From Shigella phage MK-13, in the sequence record MK509462: a stretch of DNA of 64,000 bases. One strand, written 5' to 3'. The notes beneath the pieces were generated by a model. It had not been told where the DNA came from. It was given only the letters and a program-made list of their open reading frames with translations, and did not search any database. This document shows positions 4,643 through 61,019 of the stretch, in pieces. Within the stretch, counting starts at the first letter, position 1. Each line of letters opens with the position of its first letter. A program made the position numbers and the translations under genes.

Positions 4643-5688
4643 TGGAAATCAAAGCAATTAACAACAATGACATGCTGAAGCAGGCTGTCTTGGCTATCCG
4701 CGAATACGGAATTGAATCTGATCCTGGTAATGCGGAGATCAACACCGACGGCACCCGATTCCTTGATGGTGTGACGATTACCGTGGATGATATCCGCAGC
4801 CGCTGGCTGTCTGTTGAAGGTCGTAACTCATCGGCTATCGCTGCCATCGGCGAGACCTTCTGGGTTCTGTCCGGGCGCGATGACGTTCGCTTCCTGTCCC
4901 GCGTGTTGCCCCGCGCCGCCAACTTTTCCGACAACGGCCACACATGGCGAGCCGCTTATGGTCCGCGTCTGTACGCCCATGGCCAGCTGGATAGCGTCAT
5001 CAACCGTCTGCGCAAGAACCCAAACACCCGTCAGGCGTACCTCACCATCTATGACCCGGCTCTGGATTCAGATGCTGGCCTGGCGAAGTTCAGCGAGAGC
5101 GGCGAAGCGAAGACTAAAGACATGGTGTGTAACCTGGCTCTGTTGTTCGCCATCGTTGAAGGTCGTCTGAACCTGACGGTCATCAACCGCTCACAGGATG
5201 TTCTGTGGGGTATGAGTTCAATCAACTTCATTGAGTTCTCTATTCTTCAGGAAGTGATTGCTCGGGTGCTGGGTGTTGATGTCGGCCAGTACAAGCTCTT
5301 CTCTAACAATCTTCATTACTACAACAATGAAGTCAGCCAGAAGCAGCTGGGCAAGATCACGAAGGACACCAAAGTAGAAGCTGGGTTCATCAACTCAATG
5401 ATTCACTTCAAGAACGTGACCAACCAGAACCATATCCGCAATCTGTTCACTGGTGTGCTTCATCACTGTGATATCGGTAGCCCGTGGGAAACTGTGGTCG
5501 CCCACCTGAAGGAATATGATGCTGATCGCGGCCTGATTGTACAGATGGCGTACTGCCTGTACTGCAAGCTGAACGACAAACTCATCAACATGAACCTGAT
5601 TCAGGATCATGGTTTGAACATTGCGCTCACCCATTCTCCAGTTGACCGCAAGATCGTTGATCCTAAGTTCCTGGAAGGTGTGGTATGA
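4642..5688 (+). CDS. Thymidylate synthase-fold enzyme, divergent; candidate pyrimidine (dUMP/dCMP) hydroxymethylase
   Basis: Divergent counterparts of ThyA motifs: RQAYLTIYDP (ThyA RRIIxSAWNP), Cys in DMVCNLALLF (catalytic-Cys region), NRSQDVLWGMSSINF (ThyA QRSxDxxLGxPFN); recognised from memory of family motifs. Confidence 0.6.
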   Translation: MEIKAINNNDMLKQAVLAIREYGIESDPGNAEINTDGTRFLDGVTITVDDIRSRWLSVEGRNSSAIAAIGETFWVLSGRDDVRFLSRVLPRAANFSDNGHTWRAAYGPRLYAHGQLDSVINRLRKNPNTRQAYLTIYDPALDSDAGLAKFSESGEAKTKDMVCNLALLFAIVEGRLNLTVINRSQDVLWGMSSINFIEFSILQEVIARVLGVDVGQYKLFSNNLHYYNNEVSQKQLGKITKDTKVEAGFINSMIHFKNVTNQNHIRNLFTGVLHHCDIGSPWETVVAHLKEYDADRGLIVQMAYCLYCKLNDKLINMNLIQDHGLNIALTHSPVDRKIVDPKFLEGVV

Positions 5689-6254
5689 TGTACCCGAACC
5701 TTGAATTCTTTACGGGGCGCAAGCGCTCCGGTAAGGACTTCTGTTTGGAGTCCCTCATCAGCTATCACCATCTACAGGGTGATATGGATATCCAGCGCCT
5801 TTCGTTCTCAGACGAACTGCGCCGGGTCGCCAACTACATTTACCCGTGGCTGCCAGCGGAGGTAGAGGATGCCGTGAAGGACGTTCCTTACGTCCACCCT
5901 GATAACCCCAAGGGCTTAACCCCACGGCAGATCTGGCTTCATCTCGGCAGCGATACGGGCTTGCGTTATGTACAGCCTGATCTGTTCCTGGCATTCTTTA
6001 AGCGCTTCCAGCTTCCTCTGGTGGAGCAGAACCCTCATGTACATTATATCGTGAGTGACCTGCGCACCCCTCAGGAATATGAATGGGCGCTGAGTACGAA
6101 ATGCCCTATCACCCGCATTTCAAAGGCCGACCGCGCTGGTATCATAGAGGACGATATAGAGGCTTTCATTGACAAGATGGAAGTGGACTACGAATTCCTC
6201 AATCCATTTGATGGTTGGGCACCGTTCGTTAAATTCTACGGAGAACGTAAATGA
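5685..6254 (+). CDS. Deoxynucleoside monophosphate kinase (T4 gene 1-like)
   Basis: N-terminus FFTGRKRSGKD matches T4 gp1 FLSGVKRSGKD; ATGA start/stop overlap with the upstream gene. Confidence 0.6.
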   Translation: MMYPNLEFFTGRKRSGKDFCLESLISYHHLQGDMDIQRLSFSDELRRVANYIYPWLPAEVEDAVKDVPYVHPDNPKGLTPRQIWLHLGSDTGLRYVQPDLFLAFFKRFQLPLVEQNPHVHYIVSDLRTPQEYEWALSTKCPITRISKADRAGIIEDDIEAFIDKMEVDYEFLNPFDGWAPFVKFYGERK

Positions 6255-6805
6255 TCACAGCAGGGCATATCAAAAGCCTGCTCGAACTCCAAAAGGCCAC
6301 CAACGTGGCCTACTTTGGGGAAGAGTGGAAGAATGTATGGAGTCAGAACGCAGTCATCAACTCCATCTATCGTGAATGGGCAGAGTTCCTTGACGAAACC
6401 AGCCGCGACTGGAAGGTCTATGGCAACGACGTCGGGTTTCACCATGCGAACGCAGTCTATGAACTGGTGGACGTGGTACACTTCATGCTGTGCTTCATCC
6501 TTATGGACCGCACCAAAGGCGAGATCGAAGAAGAATTCGAAATCCTCGGTGGCCGCGAATTCACCCCATCTGCTTTGGGTGCTGTTGGGCATCGCGGTGT
6601 GACGTATCGTCTTGGGCAGTTCATGAACGAACCTTGTGTCGAGACCCTCATGTTCTTCCTGTCGGCTGCGTGTTCTTACATGGAGATCGATATTGAGACC
6701 TACATGCTGGCGCACAAGCGCAAGAACGATCGCAATCGTCTGCGTGCTGCTGGCGGCGCGGATTACGACAAGTCCACAGAAACCCCTCTGACCCTGGAGT
6801 TCTAA
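6251..6805 (+). CDS. All-alpha NTP pyrophosphohydrolase-like protein (MazG/dimeric dUTPase-like); candidate dUTP/dTTP/dCTP pyrophosphatase
   Basis: Acidic motifs (REWAEFLDE, YELVDVVHF) typical of the MazG/HisE-like fold; ATGA overlap with the dNMP kinase gene. Confidence 0.4.
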   Translation: MITAGHIKSLLELQKATNVAYFGEEWKNVWSQNAVINSIYREWAEFLDETSRDWKVYGNDVGFHHANAVYELVDVVHFMLCFILMDRTKGEIEEEFEILGGREFTPSALGAVGHRGVTYRLGQFMNEPCVETLMFFLSAACSYMEIDIETYMLAHKRKNDRNRLRAAGGADYDKSTETPLTLEF

Positions 6806-7347
6806 TGTTTACAGTCGTCGTTTCATATCATGCAGACAACGCGGCGAACGCATCCGCTAATTTCGCCGAGCACATCATCGGCGGCGGTCATAATGTATTC
6901 ATCACTGAATACACCAGGCCTGTTAAACTGGGTGATGGTCTTTCGGCGACTGTCACGCATAAGATCGCCAGCGAGCAACCAGAGTCTCTGTTCAGGATGA
7001 TCGAAGAGTATGCCAGCGGTGGCGTCGAGATACCAGAGGAACTGGTGGACGTCTACTTCGAAGGTTCGATCTATTACATCCACGCCATGCCAAAGGATGT
7101 AACCATTGAACAGATGATGTATATCCTGAATATTGCGCTGAACGCTGCGTGCATCAACCGCACGAACTACAACAATCTGCGCAATATGTACCTAACCGAC
7201 CGACATAATGACGCACCGTCGCCTGTTGAGATGATGTCTCTGAAGAGCATCCAAGAGGCGATTAACATTTTGTCCCAGAAGGTTATGGGTGTAGAATTAT
7301 TAACGACGATCAACAATAAAGAGGAAGTGAAATGGCCAGTTCATTAA
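6805..7347 (+). CDS. Hypothetical protein
   Basis: 180 aa ORF; TAATG overlap with upstream gene. Confidence 0.45.
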   Translation: MFTVVVSYHADNAANASANFAEHIIGGGHNVFITEYTRPVKLGDGLSATVTHKIASEQPESLFRMIEEYASGGVEIPEELVDVYFEGSIYYIHAMPKDVTIEQMMYILNIALNAACINRTNYNNLRNMYLTDRHNDAPSPVEMMSLKSIQEAINILSQKVMGVELLTTINNKEEVKWPVH

Positions 7348-8417
7348 TGGACCGCATGCTGAAGGTTGCCAAGAAACATGACGACCAGGCTTCAGTGCTG
7401 TCCCAATCAGACGCTCTGGAACCGTCTATCATCTGTTCTACTGGTATTCCCCTGATCGACATCGCCTGGTCCGGGCGTATTGACGGCGGCCTGATCTCCG
7501 GTATCAAGATGATGGTGGGTGATTCCCGTACCTTCAAAACGATGTTCGGTCTGGTGGATGTCAAGGCGTACATGGACAAGTTCCCTGATGCTATTTGCGT
7601 CTTTGCGGACTCGGAAAAGGGTGCCAACGCCGACTACTGGACTTCCATGGGCATTGACATGGACCGCGTCCTGTACGTTCCGATTGACAACGTTGAGCAG
7701 ACCAAGATCCGCCTGCTGCAAATCCTTCAGGAAGTGAAGAAGGGTGACAAGGTCATCGTGTTTATCGACTCAATCAGCCAGTTGCCGTCTACCAAGGAAG
7801 TTGAAGATGCGATCAAAGGTAATGACACCCAAGACATGACTCGCGCCCGTGCCCTCAACAGCTTCTGGCGTGTCATCACCCCTGAAATCAACAGCAAAGA
7901 CCTCGTGTTGGTGTGGATCAACTCCTATTACGATGAGATCGGCAACCAGTATGCCGAGCCTAACATCAAAGGCGGCAAGCAGGGCTTCCTGTCGTCTAAC
8001 CTGATCTGGTTCATCACCCGTTCTCAGGTGAAGGAAGACAAAGATCTGTTGGGCTGGAACTTCAACATCGGCATCATGAAAGGCCGCCATGTCAAAGAGA
8101 AAGCCAAACTCCCTGTGACAGTGCTGTACGACGGCGGCATTGACCGTTGGAGCGGCCTGCTTGAGATCGCTCGTGCTCTGGGTTACGTTGATATGCCGTC
8201 TTCCGGCTGGTATGTGCGTACAGCCAAGGGCGGCTTCGATCCTGAGAAGGAAAAGAAATATCAGAAGCGTCAGATGGATGATGATTTCTGGTATCCGCTG
8301 CTGGAGAATGTCGACTTCGCCGATGACGTGAAGAAGATGTTCGGTGTTTCTAACGGTACTATTATGCCTGCGAACATGCTGGAGCAGATGGACCATGTTA
8401 TCAACACATCCGAGTGA
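7332..8417 (+). CDS. uvsX: UvsX RecA-like recombinase
   Basis: 361 aa; long collinear similarity to T4 UvsX (IPLIDIAWSGRIDGG..., VIVFIDSISQL..., DMTRARALNSFWRVITP..., YDGGIDRWSGLLEIARALGYV). Confidence 0.85.
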   Translation: MASSLMDRMLKVAKKHDDQASVLSQSDALEPSIICSTGIPLIDIAWSGRIDGGLISGIKMMVGDSRTFKTMFGLVDVKAYMDKFPDAICVFADSEKGANADYWTSMGIDMDRVLYVPIDNVEQTKIRLLQILQEVKKGDKVIVFIDSISQLPSTKEVEDAIKGNDTQDMTRARALNSFWRVITPEINSKDLVLVWINSYYDEIGNQYAEPNIKGGKQGFLSSNLIWFITRSQVKEDKDLLGWNFNIGIMKGRHVKEKAKLPVTVLYDGGIDRWSGLLEIARALGYVDMPSSGWYVRTAKGGFDPEKEKKYQKRQMDDDFWYPLLENVDFADDVKKMFGVSNGTIMPANMLEQMDHVINTSE

Positions 8418-36449: not shown

Positions 36450-36723
36450 GATTGGTTCTCCTATAGACTGTTATGTATTTACCACAGCAATTGCAGCAGT
36501 ATACGTGCATTGCATACCCATCATCTGTGAAGTCACAACCACCACAGCGACAGAACAACTTCACGAACTGGTCGCCATGCACTTCACGGGGAGGGAATTG
36601 TTTGTGGGAGTATTCCCTGGTCTCTCCTTCGAATTGGAAAGAGTCAATCAGGAACTTCGTTATCCGGCGGTGTGGTCCATATGCTTGCTGGGCATATTTG
36701 AAGTAGACATCAGTGGTTAACAT
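36418..36723 (-). CDS. Cys-rich small protein
   Basis: 101 aa; CRCGGCD...CCNCCGK pattern. Confidence 0.35.
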   Translation of the reverse strand: MLTTDVYFKYAQQAYGPHRRITKFLIDSFQFEGETREYSHKQFPPREVHGDQFVKLFCRCGGCDFTDDGYAMHVYCCNCCGKYITVYRRTNHGEETRNQES

Positions 36724-36740
36724 ATCGACCTCAAAGAAAA

Positions 36741-36756
36741 GGAGGCCGAAGCCCCC
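36741..36756 (-). terminator. Hairpin (ggaggc-cgaa-gccccc) with minus-strand T-run
   Basis: GC stem between minus genes; TTTTCTTTG follows on the minus strand. Confidence 0.4.
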
Positions 36757-36774
36757 TTGCAGGTTTACTGAAGA

Positions 36775-38337
36775 TTACTTGTACAGGCCAGTGACGTCAA
36801 TAGACTTGTGCTGGCGGTTGTACTCAGCAGTGTAGTCATCCAACACCAGGTATTCGCAGCAGCGGATTTTACTGGAGCCATAATCGTTGGTGATAGACAC
36901 GATATCTTTCGGGTTCAGCTTACAGCGAACAACGCGCTGGCCAACAGAACCGAAACACTGTTTCAGGTAGGCCAGGGAGCACACATGCAGACCGTATGAA
37001 CACAGGTCGGAGTTGTTGTCGTTCACGAATGAGCGAGCCATGCGCACGATAGTGCCTGGTGCGTTGCTGATCGTGTTGCTGTGTTTGTCCATGTAGTTGC
37101 CGCGCACCGATTTGTAGAGGATGATGTCACCATCGTCGTCAATTTCGATGTCGGAGTACGCCATGAACTCATAGATGCGCCCAGACTGAACCAGAGCAGC
37201 CGACGGGTTCTGGAACATTTTGTCCATAAACTTCGCCATGCGGTCCAGGTTGTGGAAGTCACCCTTCAGCATCAGCGCCAGTACACGCTTGGCGATGGAT
37301 GTGCCTGTGATGTCATGGCCAGACCAGCGGACACGGTTGTCAGACACGTCTACCAGACCTTCAGCGTACTTCGCGATGGCATCACGAGGGCGCATCAGCG
37401 AGTATGCCAGCTTCACGTCTTTGTCTTTGATCGCCTGTACGATGCGGTCATATGCTGGATGTGAAGTGGTGATCGTTTCCGGCTTGCCGTCAATTGCGAT
37501 AACAACGCTGTCAGGCAGAATCAGGATCTGGTGTTCGTTCAGGAACACGTCCAGGTCTTTCGCGCCGAAGTCCTGCTTGGTCTTCTTGTCATCAGCCACT
37601 TCTTCAACTTCTTTGATAGCGACAGCGAATTCCACAGAAGACAGAGCCAGGCGCAGGGTGCGGCCGAGGATGGCATCGAAGTAACCAACACGACGACGGG
37701 CATCCAAGGATCCACGAATAGGATAGGTTTCCCCGTCAACCACAACGCTGATTTCAACGTTGCTCGGAACTTTATCCGCACCTTCTGACAGCGCCACAGA
37801 AATTTCTGCCATCTTACCGATAGCTTCAACGCCGAAAGCGCGGCTGTTTCCTTCAACAGGAGTCAGTTCGGATTTTTCAAAGAAAGCCCCTTTGAAATTG
37901 CCGTCGTTAGTGAGACACAGATACTTGTTGTGGTTCGGTAGATATGCCCCAACATACCATTCTGAGTCATCTTTGTCTTTGGCCGTGCCGCCCGGTTGCA
38001 CCTCGAACACTTCCTGCTCTTCCTGCTTGATAGGAGAGATCACAGTTACCTTGTTTTCCTCCTCAGTAATCCGGACCAGCAGAGCGCGAGCAATGGTCTT
38101 GGCGCTTACAGCAAAGAACTCAGCCAGGGCGCGGTTGCTTTCGCCAGCCTTGCTCTTCACCTGAATCTGCTGAATCTCTTCAGTGGTCAGAGATTTCAGC
38201 GATAACGGGTTAACACCGAGTTCCGTGTCTGCAACACGTTGTACAGTCGAGCGGGGTATGCCCAACAGAGTGGCAATTGCGCTCTGGCTCATGCCTGCCT
38301 TCAAATGCTTGAGGATCTTTTCGTCAATCTTGTTCAT
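36775..38337 (-). CDS. Protein with tandem N-terminal helix-turn-helix motifs, in the rIIB position downstream of rIIA
   Basis: ORF 36775..38424; start moved to the internal Met to avoid overlap with rIIA; two HTH-like segments (MSQSAIATLLGIPRSTVQRV; SNRALAEFFAVSAKTIARAL); rIIB identity not established. Confidence 0.4.
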   Translation of the reverse strand: MNKIDEKILKHLKAGMSQSAIATLLGIPRSTVQRVADTELGVNPLSLKSLTTEEIQQIQVKSKAGESNRALAEFFAVSAKTIARALLVRITEEENKVTVISPIKQEEQEVFEVQPGGTAKDKDDSEWYVGAYLPNHNKYLCLTNDGNFKGAFFEKSELTPVEGNSRAFGVEAIGKMAEISVALSEGADKVPSNVEISVVVDGETYPIRGSLDARRRVGYFDAILGRTLRLALSSVEFAVAIKEVEEVADDKKTKQDFGAKDLDVFLNEHQILILPDSVVIAIDGKPETITTSHPAYDRIVQAIKDKDVKLAYSLMRPRDAIAKYAEGLVDVSDNRVRWSGHDITGTSIAKRVLALMLKGDFHNLDRMAKFMDKMFQNPSAALVQSGRIYEFMAYSDIEIDDDGDIILYKSVRGNYMDKHSNTISNAPGTIVRMARSFVNDNNSDLCSYGLHVCSLAYLKQCFGSVGQRVVRCKLNPKDIVSITNDYGSSKIRCCEYLVLDDYTAEYNRQHKSIDVTGLYK

Positions 38338-38368
38338 CTTGTAGTTCCCACGTTGGTTAACAGGACTA

Positions 38369-41125
38369 TTATGCCCTGATGATGGAATTTGAAATAACGT
38401 CCAAGTAATCCGAAGAATTTTCAATCGGGTTCAGAGCGCTTGGTTTGTAGTTCTCTTTCAAGAACCGGATAACACGGTGGCGCTCGATGGTCAATCGGTT
38501 TTCCCGCCTTGCTTTCAATGACGGAGTCCTCGATATATCAAACGGCGTAAATCCATGAGACCGCAACACATCCGAAGCGTAGCCAAAGATCTGTAGCATC
38601 TGATGTTCTGAACGGAAGATCTTTTCGTCACGCTCGTTGGCGTACAAATTCACGTTAAGAGAATGTATTGTGTCCTGGAAATGGCTAAAGCGGCGCTTGT
38701 CATTGATTGAAACCGGGGCTTTCGCCAGGCTTTGGTAATGACGTACAGTCTGCTCATCCAAGATATCGTCCACGACTTTCATTAACTTGTTGTAACGGCT
38801 GACCAATTTGCCATAACGATCGTCTTCAACATCACCAAACGCCTGGTGAACCAGACGGCTCCCGTATTTTAAACGATCCGCCCCAAGGCGCATGCGGCGG
38901 TATGATTCCAGTATGCGCCTGGCGCTATCGCGCTCCAACATAGGCTTCACGTTTTCCAACATGATCTTCAGGATTTCATCGATCGGGATGAAGACTTCTG
39001 GGAACTTCTTCATCATTGGCACGGATTTACGGCGAGCCAGGAAGATCCTTCTGTGAACGTTCAGTATGTCGCTGATATACACTGGCTTGCCTTCATCGTC
39101 AACACTGACTGCGTGCTCGTACAGAGATTTACGAATACCCCGAGCCGCCGCCGTCGTCAACGTTCTGTCCATCACCTGATGGATACACTCATGGCCGGAC
39201 ACCTCAATGTAGACGATGCGCTCGCCCTTGTTGATAATATCTGAGATCTGGTCGCCCGTCAGTTCTTCTTGCAGGCAGATATCGAAGTTGCTGGATGTGA
39301 ACGGAAACAGGCCAGGGTCTTTGGTGACCGGAGGCGTGACATACGTCAGTTCGTTCATGAACTTGACTTCAGCAGGCTCCAGCACCGCACTCAGCCAATC
39401 GACGAACTTGTCAGCGAAGCACAGATAATCAACCGTCGTTTCTTCTTTACCAATCCAAGTTTCAAAGAAATCATAGAGAGCCTGAGAATTATTGAACGCA
39501 GGGTTGTCCTTAGATTGGTTGCGCTTGGTGACATAGGATGTGTTCGGCTTGGCCACGATGACCATCGTTCCTGTATCTTTCAGCTGCTTGATCTTCAGAT
39601 TACGTGCACGAACACTATCTTCGATCACCACAGTAACGTGCTGTCCACGATCAATCCACTTCTGGATTTCTGAAATGGTCAGGGTACTGGACTCACCCCA
39701 GTCATAGAAGATCTCCATAGAGAACGGCGATGACAGCTCATTGAACGGCGCGGTATGGCCATAATCGCGATCAATCTCAACAGGCAGCGGGTAACGGTAA
39801 TATGAATCATGGAAGCGCTTGTCCGCCGGGTATTCCTTTTCAACCATCTTACGGAACCCGCTACCGAACATTTCGCTCAGTCTTGCCTTCTCCATATACA
39901 GGGCAAGAGGACCACGCTTACACGCCAACTCCAGGTCGCGCATCTTTTCTGCCAAGATTGCATTGGCGGTGCCCTTAAACTCCTCAGAGAGCGTCTCACG
40001 CGTGAATTCGTCATACGACAGGTCTTCACGCGACGGCGGTACGTTCAGGGAACCGAGTTCGAAGAACGTATAGGACGACGGGAACTTGCTCATGATGGAA
40101 GCAGTGTCCGGGTCCAGCTGGTCCAGGTCAATCGGGTACGACACACCACCCATCACAGCATAATGGGTGTTCCCCTGGCCTTTCGGCTGGATGTACGTAT
40201 TGTTGACCTTGAAATCATAACTGATATCTTCCCAGCTGAAGCGGTATGAAGCGTTCTCAACAATTGGGCGTTGTTCAGGGCGCATAACACGACCAAGACG
40301 GACCAGTTCATCGGAGAATGCAGAGAAACGAGCGTTCTTCACCGGGATCTTCACCGTCATACCGTTGAACTCATCAGTGTCTTCCGGCTTTGGATCACGG
40401 GTTTCAAGATCTTTGGTGATCAGATCAACAGTCGGGATGCGCTTGGCGTTCAGGTACATCAGGAAGCGATGGAGTTTACCGTTCATGCGGCTTTCCACAG
40501 TGAACGAATCCGATACCGCAAATGGTGATTTGGAGCCAAGACCGAATGCCCCAATCTGATCATCATCTTCTTCCTTCGTACTGTGGAAGAGGGTGGTGTA
40601 CAATCCAGGCGTACGAATGATCTCGCCGTCTTCACGACGGAACACCAAAGACCCATTGTAGAACCCTGGAATACCGATGACTTCGGCCGAATCGGGGATC
40701 TCGTCTTCCTTCACGACCATGTTGCCTTCCAGCAGCACCTCATCTTCCTGCGCTGGGATGGCTTCACCGATGATCTTCTCAAGCGGCAGACCGATACCGT
40801 AATCACGGATTTCCAGCCATGGCTCAAAGTCATCAGGCAAATGCACAACAACTCGTGTGCCCTTCGGTGCCAGGTATTTGCTGTGGCGGGCAGGAGGGGG
40901 AGTGAGAGGCGCGTAGTGGGATGCTACCATGCGGTGCATACGATCACGCATGCCATGGGAGTCGATGGCGTTACAGGTGGTTTCACGCAGGGCTGCAGCC
41001 TCTTTGTAACGATACAATGATGAGAACAGAGTCTCAAACATCTTGTCGTTCATTTTGACGTTAAACGCCTGCCCCTGAATGGAAGACGACGAGCGGATGA
41101 AGTGCTCGGACTTGCGCATTTTCAT
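38369..41125 (-). CDS. rIIA: rIIA-like protein with N-terminal GHKL (HATPase_c) ATPase domain
   Basis: 918 aa; N-box ETTCNAIDS, G1 box DYGIGLP, G2 box GAFGLGSKS; within 6 kb of the topoisomerase genes, as in the T4 rII-60-39 region. Confidence 0.55.
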   Translation of the reverse strand: MKMRKSEHFIRSSSSIQGQAFNVKMNDKMFETLFSSLYRYKEAAALRETTCNAIDSHGMRDRMHRMVASHYAPLTPPPARHSKYLAPKGTRVVVHLPDDFEPWLEIRDYGIGLPLEKIIGEAIPAQEDEVLLEGNMVVKEDEIPDSAEVIGIPGFYNGSLVFRREDGEIIRTPGLYTTLFHSTKEEDDDQIGAFGLGSKSPFAVSDSFTVESRMNGKLHRFLMYLNAKRIPTVDLITKDLETRDPKPEDTDEFNGMTVKIPVKNARFSAFSDELVRLGRVMRPEQRPIVENASYRFSWEDISYDFKVNNTYIQPKGQGNTHYAVMGGVSYPIDLDQLDPDTASIMSKFPSSYTFFELGSLNVPPSREDLSYDEFTRETLSEEFKGTANAILAEKMRDLELACKRGPLALYMEKARLSEMFGSGFRKMVEKEYPADKRFHDSYYRYPLPVEIDRDYGHTAPFNELSSPFSMEIFYDWGESSTLTISEIQKWIDRGQHVTVVIEDSVRARNLKIKQLKDTGTMVIVAKPNTSYVTKRNQSKDNPAFNNSQALYDFFETWIGKEETTVDYLCFADKFVDWLSAVLEPAEVKFMNELTYVTPPVTKDPGLFPFTSSNFDICLQEELTGDQISDIINKGERIVYIEVSGHECIHQVMDRTLTTAAARGIRKSLYEHAVSVDDEGKPVYISDILNVHRRIFLARRKSVPMMKKFPEVFIPIDEILKIMLENVKPMLERDSARRILESYRRMRLGADRLKYGSRLVHQAFGDVEDDRYGKLVSRYNKLMKVVDDILDEQTVRHYQSLAKAPVSINDKRRFSHFQDTIHSLNVNLYANERDEKIFRSEHQMLQIFGYASDVLRSHGFTPFDISRTPSLKARRENRLTIERHRVIRFLKENYKPSALNPIENSSDYLDVISNSIIRA

Positions 41126-41204
41126 AGTATAGAAATCCTATCAATGTCAAAGGGAAACATATTGATTGAGTGGGTATGATACTGTGGTGGGCTTCAATTG
41201 AAAA

Positions 41205-41222
41205 AGCCCTCGGCTGAGGGCT
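41205..41222 (-). terminator. Hairpin gccctc-ggct-gagggc with flanking T/A runs
   Basis: 6-bp GC stem; TTTTTC on the minus strand downstream of gene 41232..41579. Confidence 0.45.
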
Positions 41223-41231
41223 TTGTTCAGA

Positions 41232-41579
41232 TCAATCTTCGGTGGCAAATCGTGCCTGGAAGTTGAATGTCGGTCGGGTTGCCCCAGGCTCAAGGGTTTC
41301 CTCAAGATAGCCCACGACGGTGCGGGTGACTGACACAGGCTCTTTGCGAGGGTTGACCGGAGTGGCCAGTGCGATGATAGAGGACTGCTGCTCTTCTACA
41401 CGCGTGTAGTCCACATTGAAGTGATAACGGCTACCGAACGCGGCCACTTCAACTTCAGTGATCTGTAGATCTTTCAGGTCAGTGCTGCTCAGGGTTCCCA
41501 CGTTCAACTGTGAGCGCAGATGCTCAACAATGTTGGAGTACACATACTGTGGGGTGATCAGCTGTTCAATAGAACTCAT
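41232..41579 (-). CDS. Hypothetical protein
   Basis: 115 aa ORF. Confidence 0.4.
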   Translation of the reverse strand: MSSIEQLITPQYVYSNIVEHLRSQLNVGTLSSTDLKDLQITEVEVAAFGSRYHFNVDYTRVEEQQSSIIALATPVNPRKEPVSVTRTVVGYLEETLEPGATRPTFNFQARFATED

Positions 41580-59786: not shown

Positions 59787-59870
59787 TGGAGCGGGAGAGC
59801 AGGATTCGAACCTGTCCAGTGATCGTCGCCGATGATCAGTCGGCTACTGTCCAACCCCTATGGCTCCCGC
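59787..59870 (-). tRNA. tRNA-like gene, atypical (anticodon unresolved; GAT if the central hairpin is the anticodon arm)
   Basis: Hand-folded: 7-bp acceptor gcgggag/ctcccgc, T-loop TTCGAAT, encoded CCA, 5-bp hairpin gccga-ctGATca-tcggc; one extra nucleotide between T-stem and acceptor and a long variable region. Confidence 0.35.
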
Positions 59871-60093
59871 GAAATAAGGACGGGCTTCACACCCGATTGA
59901 GCATTTGATCTGCCGTAGCCCAACTCCCCGCGCTTCTCAGCGCCGATTGGTTAACTGGCGACCAGTGCCTTCTGGTTCGATCTCCTGGAACTTTACAGGC
60001 TTTGCGCCCGACCATTTCTGGAAGTTGGGGCATCGTTTCCGATGTGGAGTCACCCCATTTTATACACAGCGTGGCTGCAACGCTTACTGTGTT

Positions 60094-60177
60094 TGGTGTG
60101 AGTGGATGGATTCGAACCACCGCGCTGTTACGGGGAGATTTACAGTCTCCTGCATTCGACCGCTCTGCCACACTCAC
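60094..60177 (-). tRNA. tRNA-Tyr (anticodon GTA), class II with long variable arm
   Basis: Hand-folded: acceptor gtgagtg/cactcac, anticodon arm ggaga-ctGTAaa-tctcc, T-arm ggtgg-TTCGAAT-ccatc, encoded CCA; anticodon loop matches E. coli tRNA-Tyr from memory. Confidence 0.7.
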
Positions 60178-60187
60178 ATTTGGTCTA

Positions 60188-60251
60188 CCGCTGCGTGCTG
60201 GGCCACGCTCGAGGACATCGGCCATCCTTCCTCAGCTAATCCACGCAGCGG
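60188..60251 (-). other. Long hairpin (10-bp inverted repeat ccgctgcgtg / cacgcagcgg, about 44-nt loop) adjacent to tRNA-Tyr
   Basis: Inverted repeat seen directly; possible processing signal or small RNA. Confidence 0.35.
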
Positions 60252-60434
60252 CAGATTTGTTTCAGAGTGTCCGGTGTAGCAACCCGTGAGGTGCGCACTA
60301 CTGTAGCCTCTACACTCTGAATTTGGTGGGCGTTACTATCGTCGTCTTCGGATTCCGTTCGGCTATTGGACAGAGGCTTGGAGCTTGTCGGTCGCGTACT
60401 TCGTGCCTATTCACTTTCGTTCACACCCATTGTC

Positions 60435-60510
60435 TGGCGACGATGACAGGACTTGAACCTGTGACATATGGATTAACAGTCCACCGTTCTACCGACTGAA
60501 CTACATCGTC
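60435..60510 (-). tRNA. tRNA-Asn (anticodon GTT)
   Basis: Hand-folded canonical cloverleaf: acceptor gacgatg/catcgtc, D-arm gttc/gaac, anticodon loop ctGTTaa, T-arm acagg-TTCAAGT-cctgt, encoded CCA; near-identical core to E. coli tRNA-Asn from memory. Confidence 0.75.
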
Positions 60511-60939
60511 TTTATCCGTGCTTGTTCGCTTCAATCGCCCTTAATTGGGCATCAGCGTCAGCTTTGGTGTCATGTGTACCAAGAACCTTCGTCTTGGTGT
60601 GGTCAAGGACAACCCACTTGTCACCTCGCTTTTCAACAAACTCGACAATCTCTTTGTTGTCGGTAGCGAGGCCATCCCACTCAGCAATAAAATCACCGAA
60701 CGTTTTCATCATACTCACCAATTGTTTATTGAACAACTGGTTTATTTAGGTGCTCCCAAGGCGGTATTTGAATCCCGCGATCCCATCACACCTGCCGTAG
60801 ACCGGAGCTTGCTGGCAGTCCAACAATGTTTGGCGGGGTTTGAGGATTTTCACCTCACCTGCTGGGTTTGGCCGCCCAGCCGTTCTCTATGAGGATTCGC
60901 TGTCCGGACAACTATCCCTTAAACTATCGCCCCTCAATT

Positions 60940-61019
60940 TGGTTGGAGGAGAAGGATTCGAACCTTCAACGGCTGCCGCCATCCCCTCAGGGAATGTCTA
61001 CCCCTTCCATCATCCTCCA
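60940..61019 (-). tRNA. tRNA, isotype uncertain (possible anticodon TGA)
   Basis: Perfect 7-bp acceptor tggagga/tcctcca, perfect T-arm gaagg-TTCGAAT-ccttc, encoded CCA; D and anticodon arms fold ambiguously by hand. Confidence 0.45.

Follow-up and report, generated by a model that had tools for sequence, protein, structure and literature searches.

The two genes at positions 36775-41125 of the sequence analysed here, a 64,000-nucleotide stretch of Shigella phage MK-13 (record MK509462; hereafter the window), form an ordinary rIIA-rIIB counter-defence pair of an Ag3-like phage, one that is already annotated. The window is an Agtrevirus (Ackermannviridae) genome, and the 4351 bases of the locus share 97% nucleotide identity over the full span with Shigella phages Ag3 and ChubbyThor, where the counterpart genes are annotated as RIIA and RIIB. 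Compared with gp001 RIIA and gp002 RIIB of Ag3 (phiSboM-AG3), the two proteins have identical lengths (918 aa and 520 aa), and the gene order and neighbours are alike. The genes are also present in ChubbyThor, P46FS4 and SKML-39 (Agtrevirus, Ackermannviridae), and the locus differs from these Ag3-group relatives by point differences only. Near-identical genes are annotated, the core genome of the Ackermannviridae includes both rIIA and rIIB (PMC10892097), and the locus itself is already known. The analysis established the identity of the genes, their domain structure, the conservation of their motifs and the conserved gene order; that the locus as a whole represents an rII module of the Ag3-like Ackermannviridae kind, working as a joint counter-defence unit, is highly probable. 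Both open reading frames of the initial annotation are present on the minus strand:

38369..41125, minus strand: rIIA gene, 918 aa, ATG start (phrog_3661, T4 rIIA homology, Ag3/ChubbyThor annotation)
36775..38337, minus strand: rIIB gene, 520 aa from the first ATG; 36775..38424 from an alternative TTG start at 38424 (PHROG, T4 homology, relatives' annotation)

The 918-aa protein is rIIA. It matched phrog_3661 ('RIIA') with E=0 over aa 1-918 and phrog_612, the T4 family, with E 2.8e-78; in BLASTP, aa 17-396 aligned with T4 rIIA at 25% identity (E 4e-28). The ~400 N-terminal aa make up the conserved GHKL ATPase region, the C-terminal half is lineage-specific, and homologues outside the Ackermannviridae-like set align with only ~22-48% of the query. 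The window protein shares the GHKL N-domain and the next ~200 aa with T4 rIIA (725 aa), but it is 193 aa longer, carries an insertion of ~55 aa that lies between G1 and G2, and is unrelated in its C-terminal half. The insertion is also absent from a distant metagenomic rIIA (L005:2745-4937).

40952..40996, minus strand: GHKL N box (AALRETTCNAIDSHG; E48, N52, D55; E48-x3-N52-x2-D55), from conservation and profile-to-PDB alignment
40778..40816, minus strand: GHKL G1 box (IRDYGIGL; D108, G110, G112), from the same two sources
40604..40768, minus strand: ~55-aa insertion between G1 and G2 (aa ~120-174), seen as a gap in BLASTP alignments
40514..40564, minus strand: GHKL G2 box (IGAFGLGSKSPF; G192, G195, L196, G197, K199), from conservation and profile-to-PDB alignment

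The N, G1 and G2 boxes had been recognised in the initial annotation of this rIIA-like protein, and they follow the GHKL patterns ExxxNxxD, DxGxG and GxxGxG. Across 35 homologues, some as distant as 20% identity, their residues proved invariant or almost invariant. E48, N52 and D55 were invariant in all 35 and aligned to the N box of HtpG/TRAP1 in the profile-to-PDB alignment. A Pfam search with the window rIIA alone gave no match, and the GHKL assignment thus needed the conservation analysis and a family profile. A search of the PDB with the rIIA sequence gave no match either, and the NCBIfam sacsin/HtpG ATP-binding matches at aa 178-216 were below cut-off; the family profile found HtpG in the PDB (2ior_A, E 1.8e-7) and, more weakly, TRAP1 and Hsp90, with the motifs aligned. 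The likeness to the N-terminal ATPase domain of Hsp90, HtpG and TRAP1 (GHKL superfamily), in which N, G1 and G2 boxes align with those of rIIA, is confined to ~130-140 residues, and neither the middle nor the C-terminal domain of Hsp90 was detected in the window protein. Judged from these alignments, rIIA has the domain structure of a GHKL ATPase of the Hsp90/HtpG type in which the catalytic N box is intact, and its C-terminal half is specific to the lineage.

The 520-aa protein encoded downstream is a true rIIB. It was matched end to end by phrog_3803 ('RIIB'; aa 1-520, 6.7e-285), and its last 250 aa aligned with aa 88-311 of T4 rIIB at 35% identity over 230 residues (E 5e-46). Pfam family PF26926 (Phage_T4_rIIB) was found on all 52 homologues, from 92% identity down, and it is through these homologues that the window protein is assigned to it. 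These results decide a question that the initial annotation had left between a divergent rIIB and an inserted DNA-binding regulator, in favour of the former; alignment to the T4 proteins, which it had proposed as a check, recovered both rIIA and rIIB. A sequence search of rIIB against the PDB gave nothing useful, with one marginal HTH match (E 0.7). The start codon differs among relatives: the ATG, used in Ag3, agrees with the RefSeq annotation of that phage and with the N-terminus of every close homologue, while the upstream TTG, annotated in ChubbyThor, leads to a 56-nt overlap with rIIA. The protein is modular, with two helix-turn-helix (HTH) segments, a beta-rich insert and the family-defining rIIB core of ~230 aa:

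38212..38337, minus strand: HTH1 (aa 1-42), extra N-terminal module not found in T4 rIIB (Pfam HTH_23, HTH_24, HTH_28)
38062..38208, minus strand: HTH2 (aa 44-92), counterpart of the T4 rIIB N-terminal HTH (Pfam HTH_38, HTH2-only profile)
37528..38061, minus strand: middle beta-rich insert (aa ~93-270; AF2 strands 88-241, pLDDT mostly about 90)
36778..37527, minus strand: rIIB core domain (aa 271-520), Phage_T4_rIIB type (alignment to T4 rIIB)

T4 rIIB (312 aa) has one N-terminal HTH, corresponding to HTH2, and a core with the same CS-x-GLHVC...C residues as in the window, whereas the window protein has in addition HTH1 and the ~180-aa insert between HTH and core. The full-length rIIB homology that, according to the initial annotation, would make the HTH resemblance incidental is essentially there for HTH2 and the whole core, but not for HTH1 and the insert.

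Both HTHs in rIIB are real, and an HTH is normal in rIIB proteins, including that of phage T4. HTH_23 scored 35.4 bits at aa 8-38 (Pfam gathering cut-off 24.6, E 8.5e-9) and HTH_38 43.7 bits at aa 48-84 (cut-off 27, E 2.3e-11), which bears out the two N-terminal HTHs initially described; HTH1 forms three helices in the AF2 model. The accompanying statement that an HTH is not expected from T4 rIIB was mistaken. Weak Pfam HTH matches were found at aa 7-50 of the T4 protein, and an HTH2-only profile of Ackermannviridae segments matched its aa 4-45 (21.3 bits, E 2.2e-6); this profile was built without T4, whereas a first iterated HTH profile had T4 in its seed. The HTH1-only profile did not match T4 rIIB. 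When the isolated HTH segments were compared one by one with the N-terminus of T4 rIIB in BLASTP, no alignment resulted; hence the kinship of the HTH with T4 rIIB is visible only through profiles. An N- or C-terminal HTH was detected in about a third of the rIIB family representatives (51 of 143) and in 100 of the 203 core-bearing proteins, about half of which have no detectable HTH, and HTH families were the commonest Pfam partners among 113 rIIB representatives. A stand-alone HTH regulator or transposase-type protein (IS630/IS21, Cbp1) was considered and rejected: the NCBIfam matches HTH_Cbp1 (aa 3-80) and IS21 (aa 10-93) were far below cut-off (17-21 bits versus 100-160) and confined to aa 3-93. 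The useful outcome is a correction: rIIB proteins, that of T4 among them, regularly carry the HTH as a mobile accessory module, and its presence does not point to a foreign regulator.

The middle insert is present in the long rIIB-family proteins (P0001-P0043, alignment A1, ~500-590 aa) and absent from the short ones (P0044-P0052). It had no match in a Pfam search, and Foldseek with the full-length rIIB model found nothing in the PDB at E <= 1e-3; the insert was only weakly similar to tandem Tudor/Agenet/KOW barrels (E ~1e-2, TM <= 0.16). The similar strings 'VVVDGETY' and 'IAIDGKPET' prompted a test of whether the insert duplicates the first core subdomain, and this was rejected, as an HMM of aa 268-345 searched against the inserts gave E > 0.1.

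The core is the widespread part of the protein, with 7367 cluster representatives at E<=1e-3, and its AF2 model has a pLDDT of 87.5. Its BFVD matches were rIIBs from many phage groups. No credible match was obtained with the core-only model in a Foldseek search of the PDB (best E 0.08), and matches to CNFy (prob 0.21) and NADase (prob 0.02) were too weak to use. The invariant Cys/His residues of the core and its lack of a structural relative in the PDB are traits of the whole family and not specific to this locus. As the initial annotation had noticed, the C-terminal part contains cysteines, six of the seven lying within the last 75 residues (446, 453, 461, 472, 493 and 494).

36979..37002, minus strand: conserved motif C446-S-Y-G-L-H451-V-C453, from conservation in 113 diverse family members
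36856-36858, minus strand: C494, invariant in alignments A1/A3; at least 90% of the 113 diverse sequences have it

The family residues C-S-x-G-L-H ... K-x-R-x-C-x-Y are present in the window protein, as are all positions invariant in the 113 diverse members (C446, G449, H451, Y457, P476, D485, K490, R492 and Y496). A tentative proposal, which we regard as rather unlikely, is that the core is a phage-specific fold without a solved relative, that the Cys446/His451/Cys494 cluster is catalytic or metal-binding, and that the HTHs (a pair here, a single one in T4, at the C-terminus in some phages) bring the core activity to DNA together with the rIIA ATPase. In that case the Ackermannviridae rIIB, which has two HTHs and folds well, would be a good handle on the 70-year-old question of rII biochemistry, and the trait would be one of the rIIB family at large, with nothing new about the locus. 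The domain map marks the GHKL ATPase, the HTH tether(s) and the Cys/His core without known fold as targets for mutagenesis.

The genes lie on the same strand, with rIIB directly downstream of rIIA and a gap of 31 nt from the rIIA stop codon to the rIIB ATG. Gene order is the same in T4, and rIIA is likewise followed by rIIB in the distant metagenomic phage loci L005 and L006. Escherichia phage RB43 carries a natural RIIA-RIIB fusion of 1049 aa (Q56C47) that combines the N-domain of rIIA with the core of rIIB (matched by the core model in Foldseek at E 7.8e-24), so that a single polypeptide there takes the place of the two genes of the window. The phrog_609 profile, which spans rIIA and rIIB, matched both window proteins. 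The RB43 fusion suggests that rIIA and rIIB work as a complex. The divergent rII modules of five phages, from groups other than Ackermannviridae, were dispensable without RexAB and needed in its presence (PMC11879866), and rIIB on its own is toxic in E. coli and sets off a gasdermin/CARD defence (PMC10312443). Literature searches turned up no experimental work on the rII module of any Ackermannviridae phage. By homology with T4 and the other tested phages, rIIA and rIIB most likely act jointly as a conditionally required counter-defence unit, which would let the phage grow on hosts with Rex-like abortive-infection systems. In such a unit, the rIIA ATPase may drive a conformational cycle, and the HTH modules may tether the rIIB core, and through the core rIIA, to DNA or a DNA-protein complex. 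In T4 genetics, growth on K12(lambda) does not require the extreme N-terminus of rIIB (r1589 deletion, Crick-Brenner B1 segment). A literature search on r1589 and the dispensability of the rIIB N-terminus found no usable paper; if the N-terminus is indeed dispensable, Rex relief can do without the HTH.

The HTHs also allow rIIB to be viewed primarily as a transcription factor with sequence specificity, which would act negatively and adjust phage transcription to the physiology of the host. In the Ackermannviridae version the tandem HTHs would read a bipartite operator, and rIIA would be a separate counter-defence ATPase. Iyer et al. 2021 list rIIB orthologues as phage-specific transcription factors and not as a tether (PMC7824862), the HTH1-HTH2 tandem is similar to the two-part DNA-binding regions seen in transposases and Cbp1 (far below cut-off), and HTHs recur across the family. 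Nevertheless, we consider this doubtful: the core is kept in all family members, including the roughly half that lack a detectable HTH, and this non-HTH part with its invariant Cys/His is the most conserved one. Furthermore, the RB43 fusion and the constant A-B adjacency (L005, L006) argue for one joint function, and a search for repeats or palindromes as a candidate operator in 36600-41400 yielded only short two-copy matches, as by chance. An inner-membrane location, where rIIA/rIIB would be 'membrane integrity protectors' that block a RexB-type channel or keep the membrane potential and the HTH-like segments would serve protein-protein contacts, is improbable. The T4 RefSeq note 'membrane integrity protector', the name 'membrane-associated' of the RB43 fusion and the action of RexAB through membrane depolarisation (PMC11879866) agree with it, but the secondary structure predicted by AF2 for rIIB contains no long hydrophobic helix, and a GHKL ATPase and HTHs are typical of soluble nucleic-acid or chaperone machinery. 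That an unrelated HTH regulator was inserted at the rIIB position is refuted, since its two strong Pfam HTH matches and the NCBI names of its relatives ('helix-turn-helix domain-containing protein' at 92% identity, 'DNA-binding protein' for a 56%-identical Serratia phage protein) are outweighed by the T4 rIIB alignment, the end-to-end phrog_3803 match, PF26926 on every homologue, the invariant family motif and the HTH of T4 rIIB itself.

The rII module is a two-gene unit, rIIA then rIIB, bounded by terminator-like hairpins:

41199..41229, minus strand: strong hairpin and U-run ending the upstream gene and marking the 5' boundary of the rIIA-rIIB unit (fold -17.3 kcal/mol)
41176..41204, minus strand: putative sigma-70-like promoter (TTTTCA-17-TATCAT) upstream of rIIA, a consensus match only
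36739..36758, minus strand: terminator-like hairpin and U-run, 17 nt past the rIIB stop codon (fold -13 kcal/mol, z only -1.76)

Seven sigma-70-like sites were found versus 4.7 expected, and thus the promoter match is no evidence on its own. For the hairpin at 41199..41229, none of 200 shuffles was as stable (z -5.07).

On the minus strand we identified an rIIA-rIIB gene pair and established what the two genes are, their order, the domain layout of their products and the conservation of the motifs. The initial annotation had described a GHKL ATPase of 918 aa and, downstream of it, a protein with two N-terminal helix-turn-helix (HTH) segments. Both reading frames and their motifs were confirmed; the rIIA identification stood, as did the option of a divergent rIIB, whereas the view that HTHs are not expected in T4 rIIB and the alternative option of an inserted regulator did not. 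The pair and its surroundings comprise the following features.

38369..41125, minus strand: rIIA ORF, 918 aa
40604-40768: insertion of ~55 aa between the G1 and G2 boxes of rIIA (aa ~120-174)
36775..38337, minus strand: rIIB ORF from the first ATG, 520 aa (36775..38424 if read from a TTG)
41199-41229: strong hairpin with U-run at the end of the gene preceding rIIA (-17.3 kcal/mol, z -5.07)
36739-36758: weaker terminator-like hairpin, 17 nt past the rIIB stop codon

The hairpins on both sides bound the pair, and 31 nt separate the rIIA stop codon from the rIIB ATG. Annotations of the rIIB start conflict among relatives: in phage ChubbyThor the gene is read from the TTG further upstream, which gives 549 aa and a 56-nt overlap with rIIA (the additional region corresponds to 38338-38424), while the Ag3 RefSeq annotation starts at the ATG (520 aa). 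The ATG is supported because the N-termini of all close homologues agree with it. Upstream of rIIA, the segment 41126-41175 contains a near-consensus TTGACA only ~25 nt 5' of the ATG, followed at short spacing by TATACT/TACTAT; this TTGACA element is too close to the ATG to serve the annotated start. The rIIA N-terminus reads M-K-M, the third codon being an alternative start.

Shigella phages ChubbyThor, Ag3 and Gloob and Salmonella phage P46FS4 match the 4351-base region at 97.2-97.4% identity, and Dickeya Limestone-like phages at ~90%; single matches spanning at least 80% of the query occur in 43 phage records. Almost all records listed annotate both genes as RIIA/RIIB, and from this identity and annotation the window represents an Agtrevirus-type Ackermannviridae genome. 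In published genome comparisons RIIA and RIIB are numbered 1 and 2 among the core gene products of the Ackermannviridae (PMC10892097) and are placed in phrog_3661 and phrog_3803 (PMC9409062). The pair is an ordinary module that had been annotated before.

The rIIA protein is matched along its entire length by phrog_3661 'RIIA' and, at 2.8e-78, by the T4-type phrog_612; T4 rIIA itself shares 25% identity with it over aa 17-396 (E 4e-28). The three GHKL boxes noticed initially are present (E48-x3-N52-x2-D55, D108-x-G110-x-G112 and G192-x2-G195-L-G197), and their residues are invariant or nearly so among 35 homologues with identity down to 20%. The profile of this alignment retrieved HtpG (2ior_A, E 1.8e-7), TRAP1 and Hsp90 through their ATPase N-domains, with all three motifs aligned. 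Precomputed Pfam matches place HATPase_c_3 on several distant homologues, and in T4 rIIA the same match lies below threshold. The GHKL assignment of rIIA has been published, and that description fits the window protein (Iyer et al.). Homologues outside the Ackermannviridae-like group cover ~22-48% of the query. The ~55-aa G1-G2 insertion is lacking in T4 rIIA and in one distant metagenomic rIIA. The G1-G2 region of GHKL ATPases forms the ATP lid.

The downstream protein is rIIB. It matches phrog_3803 'RIIB' end to end (6.7e-285), its residues 278-506 are 35% identical to residues 88-311 of T4 rIIB (E 5e-46), and PF26926, named Phage_T4_rIIB in Pfam, was present on all 52 homologues retrieved, whose identities are 92% and below. 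This homology excludes a DNA-binding regulator inserted at the rIIB position. The two HTHs are real, HTH_23 (aa 8-38) and HTH_38 (aa 48-84) both exceeding the Pfam gathering thresholds, and in the AlphaFold model (pLDDT 80.6) the helical HTH units extend as far as residue ~85, followed by a beta-rich part at 88-241 and a core from ~261.

HTHs are not unexpected in this family. T4 rIIB carries sub-threshold Pfam HTH matches at aa 7-50 (HTH_7 5.6e-5, HTH_28 7.8e-5), and a profile of the second HTH alone, built from Ackermannviridae-type segments with T4 left out, matched T4 rIIB at aa 4-45 (21.3 bits, E 2.2e-6); a profile of the first HTH gave no match to T4 rIIB. An exhaustive HMMER search with the rIIB core returned 7367 cluster representatives at E <= 1e-3. 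HTH families were the commonest Pfam partners among 113 representatives (HTH_23 in 19, HTH_28 in 12, HTH_7 in 8, HTH_38 in 7), and a family-specific profile detected an HTH in 51 of 143 unbiased representatives. Since both the second HTH and the core match T4 rIIB, these parts constitute a T4-type rIIB; for the first HTH and the ~180-aa middle insert no counterpart was found in T4 rIIB, and they are additions in the window protein. Clear full-length rIIB homology of the downstream protein, which by the initial annotation would refute its reading by making the HTH resemblance incidental, is in substance what we found.

Applied to all 203 proteins with a core, the family-specific profile found one N-terminal HTH in 46, two in another 46, and an HTH C-terminal to the core in 8. 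Such C-terminal HTHs, 8 of the 100 HTH-bearing proteins, are seen in the homologues P0045 and P0047 (columns ~860-960 of alignment A1); given this placement in some homologues, the HTH behaves as a mobile module. Other partners are rarer: a phosphopantetheine-binding domain occurs in 2 and KTSC in 1 of 113 representatives. In P0049, a distant rIIB-family protein (positions 5001-6251 of the metagenomic contig L005), this acyl-carrier domain is C-terminal, and an AAA ATPase gene comes after it at 6282-7409.

The point that reaches beyond this phage concerns the whole family: the fold of the rIIB core is uncharacterised, and its cluster of Cys and His residues is invariant. Nine residues are invariant in 113 diverse members (C446, G449, H451, Y457, P476, D485, K490, R492 and Y496), and C494 is found in at least 90% of them. 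The core-only model is confident (pLDDT 87.5), yet a PDB search with it yielded nothing credible (best E 0.08). In a viral structure library it matched rIIBs of several phage groups, among them T4-like, N4-like, Caulobacter and PhiW-14-like phages, and the RB43 RIIA-RIIB fusion (E 1e-28 to 1e-9). For the C-terminal half of the core, weaker matches in fold were obtained to DUF7666 proteins of phages and to one 'pentapeptide' protein (BFVD; probability ~1.0 but E ~1e-2, 110-130 aligned columns).

The two genes also stay together far from this group. On two distant metagenomic phage contigs the rIIB-family gene is directly preceded, in the same orientation, by a gene for a 730-758-aa protein; the L005 protein is homologous to the window rIIA (E 8e-20), and that of the second contig, L006, has a weak HATPase_c_3 match. 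Escherichia phage RB43 encodes a natural 1049-aa RIIA-RIIB fusion (BFVD Q56C47). The existence of this fusion explains why the phrog_609 profile (1055 positions) matches both window proteins: the N-terminal end of the profile corresponds to rIIA and the C-terminal end to rIIB.

Together, the GHKL ATPase and rIIB probably act as one complex, with the HTHs as its likely tether to DNA or to a complex of DNA and protein. In classical T4 genetics (r1589 deletion, B1 segment), growth on K12(lambda) does not require the extreme N-terminus of rIIB, so the HTH may be accessory. A true transcription-factor role for rIIB (Iyer et al.) and the classical membrane model of rIIA/rIIB action are rival readings, each of low probability. 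Divergent rII modules of five phages were needed in the presence of RexAB and dispensable in its absence (PMC11879866). On its own, rIIB sets off a gasdermin/CARD defence of bacteria, and it is toxic to E. coli (PMC10312443).

Elsewhere in the window, four tRNA genes (Ile-GAT, Tyr-GTA, Asn-GTT and Ser-TGA) are clustered on the minus strand at 59787-61019.
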